A DNA stretch of 64,000 nucleotides from an uncultured bacterium (GTDB lineage: Bacteria; Patescibacteriota; Minisyncoccia; Phycocordibacterales; PALSA-1337), in NCBI GenBank assembly GCA_963701025.1, contig OY969557.1, positions 442,042-506,041 of the forward strand. The letters are read 5' to 3'. Numbering within the stretch: position 1 is the stretch's first letter; the number at the start of each line of letters is the position of its first letter. The notes under the pieces are model-generated. The model was not told the origin of the DNA and searched no databases. It was given only the letters and a program-made list of their open reading frames with translations. The translations under genes and the position numbers were made by a program. Positions 9,566 through 41,497 of this stretch are shown piece after piece.

Positions 9566-9641
9566 TGGAGCCAAAGCCCGGGATCGGACCGGGGACCTTC
9601 GCTTTACGAAAGCGACGCTCTACCAACTGAGCTACTTTGGC
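9566..9641 (-). tRNA. tRNA-Thr(CGU), CCA encoded
   Basis: GCCAAAGTAGCTCAGTTGGTAGAGC...CTTTCGTAAAG (anticodon CGT)...GGTCCGATCCCGGGCTTTGGCTCCA. Confidence 0.85.
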
Positions 9642-10087
9642 ATCATTTTCATCAACATGCGCCCTTCCAAGATTCTACTACTAACAACTCTATCAACGCG
9701 ACCATACCCCTTGTTTGACCCTCCATACGTAGGGGTAAGAGAATCGCAATTTGGACACAATAACCTGAGATTATTTTCAATGTTATTACGCCAATTGCCA
9801 TCTATATGATCGGCCACAAGGGGAACTATACCAGTTTTTATGTTCATAATCGACCACCCACATAAGACACATCTATTATCAAACTTCTCACGTAAATATT
9901 TCTTAACATGTACCGAGACAGTGCCGATGCTACTTAAACCGCTGACTTCACCCGATTTCCATCTCTTAATGTATTCTCTGCGCTGGAATTCCTGTTGACA
10001 GGTATTGCTGCAGTATTTGTACGCAGCTTTAGCGGGTTCTCCGCCACAGACGAGACATTTCATTCTTATTTTCTTAGGCATTGGCAT
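9632..10087 (-). CDS. free-standing HNH endonuclease (151 aa)
   Basis: CxxC...CxxC zinc-knuckle pairs plus a [25 protein letters not shown] core. Sits between the two tRNA-Thr genes and overlaps the 5' end of tRNA-Thr(CGU) by about 10 nt. Confidence 0.75.
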
Positions 10088-10139
10088 AATGCCGAGTATA
10101 TCTAATCTATGAAACCCCGTCAAAAAATAATTTCTATTG

Positions 10140-10405
10140 TGGAGCCGTTGATCGGGATTGAACCGATGACCTCGCCATTCGTTTACACCTCTCCTTACGG
10201 GAGGACTAGACTGTATCTTTCTCCGCCTATCGTGGAGACCCTTGTCAGTCGTTCGGGCGCTATGCATAGCAAGCGCCACGGTCTTATCCATCGATAATAC
10301 GTCGGACTTTAACCGTTATTCGGGATTCACATATATGTTACCAAGTATGTGGGCAGGGTCTTACGACCTACCAATGGCGTGCTCTACCAACTGAGCTACA
10401 ACGGC
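10140..10405 (-). tRNA. tRNA-Thr(GGU) interrupted in the anticodon loop (after U36) by a 190 nt intron
   Basis: Exon 1 (10370-10405) is GCCGTTGTAGCTCAGTTGGTAGAGCACGCCATTGGT. Exon 2 (10140-10179) is AATGGCGAGGTCATCGGTTCAATCCCGATCAACGGCTCCA. Together they give a canonical 76 nt tRNA. Confidence 0.7.
10180..10369 (-). ncRNA. candidate group I intron (no ORF) in tRNA-Thr(GGU)
   Basis: The 5' exon ends in U and the insert ends in G (omega-G). There are GNRA hairpins (GGUC-GUAA-GACC; CUCC-CGUAA-GGAG). The stretch AAGAUACAGUCUAGUCC resembles the group I S element/P7 (UAGUC) with a partner GACUG. Confidence 0.5.
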
Positions 10406-10470
10406 ATGATCTGGTTTAACTACCAAAACAGCTACAACGGCATTTTACTTTAAAAATAAAAGAACTTCTG

Positions 10471-41350: not shown

Positions 41351-41423
41351 AACATCGAACCTGAATTTCATTCCATTGTTGAGCCACTTATGGAGTGAAT
41401 ATTTGCCGTTTCTACCAAGTTTG

Positions 41424-41497
41424 TCCGCCCTCTTGGATTCGAACCAAGGACCGCAGAGGTATAAGCTCTGTGCTCTAACCAACTGAGCTAAGGGCGG
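41424..41497 (-). tRNA. tRNA-Ile(UAU)
   Basis: Anticodon loop CUUAUAC. GGTTCGAATCC T-arm. Acceptor stem CCGCCCT/AGGGCGG. Confidence 0.75.

Follow-up and report, generated by a model that had tools for sequence, protein, structure and literature searches.

A transfer RNA (tRNA) gene that is interrupted within its own anticodon loop raises the question of whether a functional tRNA can still be made from it, and of what kind of element the interruption might be. Such a gene, a tRNA-Thr(GGU), lies on the minus strand between positions 10140 and 10405 of the 64,000-nucleotide (nt) stretch of contig OY969557.1 analysed here (hereafter the window). A first-pass annotation, made from the letters of this stretch alone, described the gene as split after U36 by an insert of 190 nt without an open reading frame (ORF), and proposed that the insert is a candidate group I intron. 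Judging from its sequence, the insert is very probably a functional group I intron of the "divergent" tRNA-Thr(GGU) 36/37 family of Patescibacteria. The group I identity is borne out by intron-plus and intron-minus alleles at a syntenic site, by a family of homologues, by covariation across a P1-P9 model that includes P9.0, and by published descriptions of introns of the same type.

The layout of the gene is simple. A 5′ exon of 36 nt (10405-10370) and a 3′ exon of 40 nt (10179-10140) enclose the insert (10369-10180), which falls between nucleotides 36 and 37 of the tRNA, is preceded by U and has G as its last nucleotide, just as the earlier reading of both ends had it. When the exons are joined, ARAGORN recognizes a canonical 76-nt tRNA-Thr(ggt), and in intron mode it reports the genomic locus as tRNA-Thr(ggt) i(37,190); both calls agree with the split first described. 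Default ARAGORN and Rfam at its gathering threshold each leave the split gene undetected. The parts of the gene are as follows.

10370..10405, minus strand: 5′ exon of tRNA-Thr(GGU), nucleotides 1-36, with the anticodon GGU at its end (GCCGTTGTAGCTCAGTTGGTAGAGCACGCCATTGGT; sequence reading and ARAGORN)
10180..10369, minus strand: very probable group I intron, 190 nt, ORF-less, first bases AGGTCGTAAG and last bases GTGTAAACG, with the omega-G at 10180 (ARAGORN i(37,190), RF00028, covariance model R1 and covariation)
10140..10179, minus strand: 3′ exon of tRNA-Thr(GGU), nucleotides 37-76, CCA encoded (AATGGCGAGGTCATCGGTTCAATCCCGATCAACGGCTCCA; sequence reading and ARAGORN)

The minimum free energy fold of the insert has a z score of -3.2 against dinucleotide shuffles, and no ORF is confined to it. 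A mechanically called ORF of 219 amino acids (aa) at 9632-10291 does cross the insert into a downstream HNH gene, but it is not the intron's own, since homologues of the HNH protein (149-151 aa) begin at MPMPKK, outside the tRNA. No second tRNA-Thr(GGU) was found in the 64-kilobase (kb) window, where the only other threonine tRNA is tRNA-Thr(CGU) at 9566-9641. The absence of an intact second copy from the window had been pointed out before, and it is plausible, as was then suggested, that splicing is essential for the reading of ACC and ACU.

Relatives of this locus provide evidence on the junction that owes nothing to folding. The closest homologues of the encoded RF2 protein (77-87% identical) are named as Patescibacteria group, Paceibacterota, Taylorbacteria or Minisyncoccia, and those at 80-87% identity led to syntenic tRNA clusters arranged as Met, Met, Asp, Thr(GGU), Thr(CGU), prfB. 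At the same syntenic site, loci L122-126 and L135/136 contain a homologous intron of 191 nt that is 85-90% identical to the window intron, and the tRNA-Thr(GGU) of loci L121, L130 and L132-134 is uninterrupted. The intron-less allele of L121 matches the exons of the window at 37/37 positions for exon 1 and 38/40 for exon 2, and the uninterrupted tRNA of the relatives agrees with the ligated exons that were predicted. Because presence and absence of the intron are polymorphic at one syntenic site, the junction is fixed independently of any folding.

The intron is one of a large family. A metagenome scan with a pattern of the R and S core elements (CGACTNACAAGG, followed after 12-40 nt by AGATANAGTCT) matched at least 120 loci. 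Exons of tRNA-Thr(GGU) broken at 36/37 could be defined in 114 of the 120 loci listed, the few that remain lying near contig ends. The introns of the listed loci span 169-256 nt, and the loci fall into 98 clusters below 90% identity. The parser that defined the exons demanded a G at the intron end, A37 and an anticodon stem paired throughout. ARAGORN called 51 of the listed loci as Thr(ggt) 36/37, and these calls are independent of the parser's demand for a terminal G; it called a further 34 as "Arg(gcg) 34/35". A second scan, of genome contigs with a 5′-exon pattern, returned no Patescibacteria homologue and was dominated by Bacteroidota tRNA-Thr genes with G38, and it also recovered IC3-like tRNA-Thr(GGU) introns in Alphaproteobacteria (L028, L051, L068, L070, L084, L111 and L114). 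The metagenome-assembled genomes in question are Hyphomicrobiaceae, Acetobacteraceae, Rhodobacterales and others, and their introns measure 205-253 nt, occupy the 36/37 site and have a GCC guide. The earlier claim that a tRNA-Thr host is uncommon does not hold for this phylum: this is a recurrent, published site in Patescibacteria, with at least 120 loci, and the IC3-like introns of Alphaproteobacteria share it.

A P1-P9 fold with a P3-P7 core, which the first-pass annotation had named as a check on its proposal, could be built on the window sequence, and overall it is supported by covariation. Its elements, in transcript order, are these.

10352..10372, minus strand: P1, formed by exon GGU (10372-10370) and the internal guide GCC (intron 16-18), the helix being extended on the intron side and capped by GUAA
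10328..10351, minus strand: P2 hairpin with a GNRA (GUAA) tetraloop (covariation)
10322..10324, minus strand: P3 5′ strand (CCC), partner of GGG at 10239-10241
10278..10316, minus strand: P4-P5 domain, with P4 at intron 54-59/87-92, P5 at 63-67/80-84, and A-rich J4/5 and J5/4
10256..10277, minus strand: P6 hairpin (both-side changes in 4/5 pairs; first pair GC, AU, CG or UA)
10246..10252, minus strand: P7 5′ strand (A-[C bulge]-GACUG); the G-C pair presumed to bind G adjoins the bulge; partner at 10208-10213
10239..10241, minus strand: P3 3′ strand (GGG), which with P7 makes the P3/P7 pseudoknot
10220..10238, minus strand: P8 hairpin (both-side changes in 5/5 pairs)
10208..10219, minus strand: J8/7 (AAGAUA) and P7 3′ strand (CAGUCU), the "S" element (RF00028 alignment)
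10181..10206, minus strand: P9.0 (intron 164-165/188-189) around a P9 hairpin with a GUAA loop, directly before the omega-G

The whole thus consists of P1-P2, P4-P6 and a pseudoknotted P3-P7-P8-P9 core, without P5abc and without P7.1/P7.2. The GUAA-capped helices and the AAGAUACAGUCUAG element that had been likened to S/P7 are both present. The model was drawn on the window sequence and then projected onto an alignment (A3) of 43 diverse members, made with plain MAFFT and not fitted to structure. In A3, 92.4% of the cells are paired under the model, a share that drops to 27-43% once the 3′ partners are shifted by 1-3 columns; changes on both sides occur in 32 of the 52 model pairs; the covariation score is 0.461, compared with at most 0.106 after shifting; and none of 500 shuffles equals any observed measure. 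De novo folding of 98 sequences with RNAalifold finds the P1 extension, P2, P4, P5, P6, P7, P8 and P9 together with the anticodon stem, and a comparison of three intron copies reveals compensatory replacement of whole helices in P2, P5, P6 and P8 around an identical core. With the core conserved over 98 clusters and compensatory changes in nearly every variable helix, these data argue for selection on the fold.

Individual elements behave accordingly. P1 sets the 5′ splice site at a U.G wobble, and its GC, GC and UG pairs are the same in 43/43 sequences; on its intron side the pairs covary, the first of them being seen as AU, GU, UA, GC and CG. Changes on both sides affect 8/8 pairs of P2, and in L135 the entire helix has been replaced in compensatory fashion. 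P4 is invariant except for a U.G to C-G change, and P5 covaries in 4/5 pairs. All cells of P3 are paired. P9 covaries in 4/4 pairs, and both pairs of P9.0 covary as well (AU 23, GC 17 and UA 2 for one; UA 25 and CG 16 for the other). The arrangement A118-[C119 bulge]-G120:C161 in P7 is read straight from the sequence, the roles of these residues being putative. P7 is identical in 43/43 sequences, most of it having been set by the search pattern; at A118, where the pattern allowed any base, 103/103 sequences have A. J8/7 and the 3′ strand of P7 are likewise invariant in the family, yet set by the search pattern. On a crude motif match, GAAA L2 loops go together with a receptor-like P8 motif (CUAAG...UAUG) in 17/48 cases, against 4/49 for other loops (Fisher p = 0.0013). 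This association suggests a contact between L2 and P8 as in Azoarcus-type introns, and a GNRA L2 probably docks on P8. The window copy has a GUAA L2 loop and a plain P8, without the receptor-like motif seen in many relatives.

A covariance model built from A3 (R1) scores 176.6 bits on the window intron and has no further match in the 64 kb. The IC3-like tRNA-Thr introns of Alphaproteobacteria are matched by it too, at 17-26 bits (best 25.6, E = 7.5e-6), in an alignment that extends over P1-P6 only.

In the mechanism that we propose, which is that of ordinary group I introns, the anticodon GGU and the guide GCC (intron 16-18) would form P1, with the U36.G16 wobble marking the 5′ splice site. 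An external guanosine, held at the P7 pair G120-C161 beside the bulged C119, would attack after U36, whereupon P9.0 (intron 164-165/188-189) would set the terminal G190 into the same site. The freed 3′-OH of U36 would then attack after G190, so that the exons are ligated, the anticodon loop UU-GGU-AA is restored and the intron is released. Boundaries, homologous family, covariation and the presence/absence polymorphism are what the data show, whereas catalysis, and its independence of protein, is what we infer here: splicing by the group I mechanism is highly probable, and efficient protein-free self-splicing somewhat less so.

The intron is of a kind already published (Castelle et al., 2018; Williams 2020 tFind preprint; Nakagawa et al., 2026). 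Nakagawa et al. (2026; PMC13011429) list introns at 36/37 of tRNA-Thr(GGU) from three complete genomes of Patescibacteria and, following Castelle et al. (2018, Nat Rev Microbiol), call them "divergent group I introns"; the three were missed by RF00028 and found by the gpI_bact_tRNA model of tFind, two of them are miscalled by ARAGORN as Arg(GCG) 34/35 (Table 1 of PMC13011429), and the published tree puts the Thr introns on a long branch near IA introns. Compared by description, the window intron shares with them the host tRNA, the anticodon, the site, the U-1 and G-omega ends, the length class, a Paceibacteria-like host, the failure of RF00028 and the behaviour of ARAGORN; by that same comparison there is no demonstrable difference. 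What is new here is the covariation-supported model of P1-P9 and P9.0, the size of the family (at least 120 loci, 169-256 nt) and the intron-plus and intron-minus alleles. The single instance accordingly adds little to the published surveys; the family analysis adds more, in that it gives the "divergent" subtype a covariation-backed secondary structure and reveals it to be very common in metagenomes.

Two other groups of bacterial tRNA introns invite comparison. With IC3 introns, of the Azoarcus tRNA-Ile and Agrobacterium tRNA-Arg type, the window intron has in common the insertion after U36 of an NNU anticodon, a P1 of 3 base pairs (bp) between exon and guide, a compact P1-P9 without P5abc and a GNRA L2; with the IC3-like Thr introns of Alphaproteobacteria it also shares the GCC guide and the host tRNA. 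It differs from IC3 in a 3′ half that does not align, in its J8/7-P7 (AAGAUACAGUCUA here, GAAGGUGUAGAGGCCAGACGG in IC3), in a P3 of just 3 bp and in length (169-256 nt in the family against 205-253 nt). [quoted passage not shown] P7.1/P7.2 helices define subgroup IA. This hallmark is lacking here, with only ACAA between P7 and P3′, a spacing that the search pattern set. Architecture and R1 matches resemble IC3, and the published tree has the Thr introns near IA.

The Azoarcus intron is 205 nt long. Set against it and against the shortest intron of the recent complete-genome survey, at 184 nt (PMC13011429), the earlier description of the 190-nt insert as one of the smallest group I introns is roughly fair but overstated, the length being modest without lying at the extreme, and its relatives reach 169 nt; a literature search returned no usable statement on the smallest group I intron. 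Among the predicted complete 36/37 introns, those of L150 and L157 measure 169 nt and those of L219, L182, L188 and L196 measure 170-173 nt. It is possible, though we would not quite favour it, that the family constitutes a structurally distinct, minimal self-splicing class, neither clearly IA nor clearly IC3, which makes do with a P3 of 3 bp and would splice without protein in highly reduced genomes. If that were true, natural members of 169 nt would be shorter than both the Azoarcus intron and the survey minimum, and the members of 169-173 nt could serve as scaffolds for minimal group I ribozymes.

The gene also has consequences for annotation. Standard procedures (default ARAGORN, Rfam thresholds) miss it, with the result that the genome would seem to be without a tRNA that reads ACC and ACU, and a tRNA missed in this way distorts estimates of completeness and codon capacity in Patescibacteria.

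Several observations weigh against the group I reading or reduce what can be claimed for it. In the Rfam search suggested at the outset, RF00028 aligns over its full model length to 10188-10372, but at 16.3 bits (E = 0.04-0.16), below the gathering score of 50. P3 has just 3 bp and a single compensatory change (CG to UA, giving UCC/GGA, in L175), and the flanking positions 45/132 are without consistent pairing. P4 and P7, being invariant, yield no covariation evidence, and P7 was set by the search pattern. P10 is weak. The values of 100% for terminal G, A37 and a paired anticodon stem in the set of homologues are circular, given what the parser demanded. Finally, the splicing of the Thr subtype is a prediction from sequence and fold. 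As to RF00028, the best-matching stretch of the window intron is J8/7-P7, which aligns to the consensus AAGAUAUAGUCua with high posterior probability. Its threshold was reached by 0/16 loci of the family and by 0/4 IC3-like tRNA-Thr introns of Alphaproteobacteria, and in a permissive search by E-value the control L051 scored 24.4 bits and the family member L188 21.4 bits. Since the IC3-like control introns fail as well, the failure of RF00028 is not evidence against group I, and we dropped its threshold as a criterion of membership. The seed of RF00028 holds no bacterial sequence (Williams 2020).

The alternative that survives best, which we nevertheless consider unlikely, accepts the group I intron and denies that it is an autonomous ribozyme, so that a host protein would be needed as chaperone or cofactor at physiological Mg2+. 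The short P3 (CCC/GGG only) with its inconsistently paired neighbours at 45/132, the small peripheral elements, the weak P10 and the want, in the window copy, of the receptor-like P8 common among relatives are all what such an intron might look like. Azoarcus-type introns of similar size, on the other hand, reportedly self-splice, the GNRA loops and P9.0 are conserved in the present family, and the intron has no maturase-like gene within it or next to it. The nearest experimental evidence points the same way: splicing assays in PMC13011429 covered only the Asn and Asp introns (35/36) of Patescibacteria, and these self-splice in vitro.

A quite different alternative concerns mobility. Downstream of the split gene lies the following feature.

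9632-10087, minus strand: free-standing HNH endonuclease gene, 151 aa (phrog_1271, E = 3e-19)

The gene sits between tRNA-Thr(GGU) and tRNA-Thr(CGU), and shares its final ~10 nt with the 5′ end of the latter. PHROGs alone identified the protein, Pfam and NCBIfam having no usable match and the Protein Data Bank (PDB) nothing significant. Its family comprises 1490 clusters at E <= 1e-5 and is unusually well conserved (62-86% identity). Intron and HNH gene could form one mobile unit, in which the nuclease cuts intron-less alleles ("collaborative homing"). Such a unit would account for an ORF that starts 52 nt past the 3′ exon, with matches to HNH endonuclease families of phages, for homologues that follow an intron-bearing tRNA-Thr(GGU) in L122-126, L178, L196 and L257, and for the patchy occurrence of the intron among close relatives. 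The association breaks down, however, when it is followed through the family, for the gene is found at only ~5 of the 93 listed intron loci with at least 600 nt downstream, and L135 has the intron without HNH. Searched from the HNH side, the gene has an intron-bearing tRNA-Thr(GGU) beside it in L257, an uninterrupted one in L260 and none in L258, and each of the three shows the overlap with the 5′ end of tRNA-Thr(CGU), its constant neighbour. The HNH gene goes with tRNA-Thr(CGU) rather than with the intron, and homing of the intron by this nuclease, which we regard as improbable, has largely been rejected on these grounds.

More improbable still is a dead insertion, under which tRNA-Thr(GGU) would be a pseudogene and some other tRNA, encoded elsewhere in the genome, would read ACC and ACU. 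The view is limited to 64 kb of that genome and RF00028 stays below threshold, both of which leave some room for such a case; yet the exons are intact and canonical, the core is conserved in 98 clusters, almost all variable helices show compensatory changes, and intron-bearing and intron-less copies of one anticodon seldom coexist in a genome. Moreover, tRNAscan-SE detects just two other tRNA-Thr genes in the published Thr-intron genomes (PMC13011429). As for a protein-spliced bulge-helix-bulge (BHB) tRNA intron of the archaeal or eukaryotic kind, or a group II intron, the chance is close to nil. BHB-type introns of the anticodon loop do exist, with short examples in DPANN contigs L063, L097 and L103, but their canonical site is 37/38 rather than 36/37, and the P1-P9 fold, the U.G wobble, the terminal G, the P9.0 and a bacterial host with Paceibacteria-type neighbour genes all speak for a group I intron.

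The three DPANN loci, which are binned as Aenigmatarchaeota, Micrarchaeota and Pacearchaeota and come from the genome-contig scan, have short inserts after the anticodon of tRNA-Thr(GGU), and these inserts are presumably protein-spliced archaeal introns.

Other genes gather around the tRNA cluster. In L130 (1509-2264) and L135 (1329-2006), free-standing LAGLIDADG-like ORFs with weak or faint matches to Pfam LAGLIDADG_3 stand between tRNA-Met and tRNA-Asp, and that of L135 overlaps the start of tRNA-Asp; together with the HNH gene of the window, they raise the possibility that the cluster may attract endonuclease genes. At ~10 of the listed metagenome loci (L138, L148, L153, L186, L189, L194, L222, L238 and L253), an ORF of ~300 aa comes right after the intron-bearing tRNA-Thr(GGU). 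By eye these ORFs resemble a tyrosine recombinase or integrase, a sign that this tRNA gene may be a target of integrative elements.

On the minus strand of the window, 10420-10441 holds a degenerate partial copy of the first ~22 nt of tRNA-Thr(GGU) (GCCGTTGTAGCTGTTTTGGTAG), in the spacer after tRNA-Asp. A similar copy is conserved in L122, L135 and L132 and is absent from L121, L130, L257 and L260. We considered the copy as a scar of intron insertion and rejected this, as in L132, where the allele is intron-less, the copy lies upstream too; a recombination or integration event might have left it behind. Elsewhere in the window, at 41423-41497 on the minus strand, ARAGORN places a tRNA-Ile with the anticodon UAU, to which the Rfam tRNA model gives 69.7 bits. 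To our knowledge this anticodon is uncommon in bacteria, where AUA is usually read by a tRNA-Ile2 with a modified CAU anticodon.

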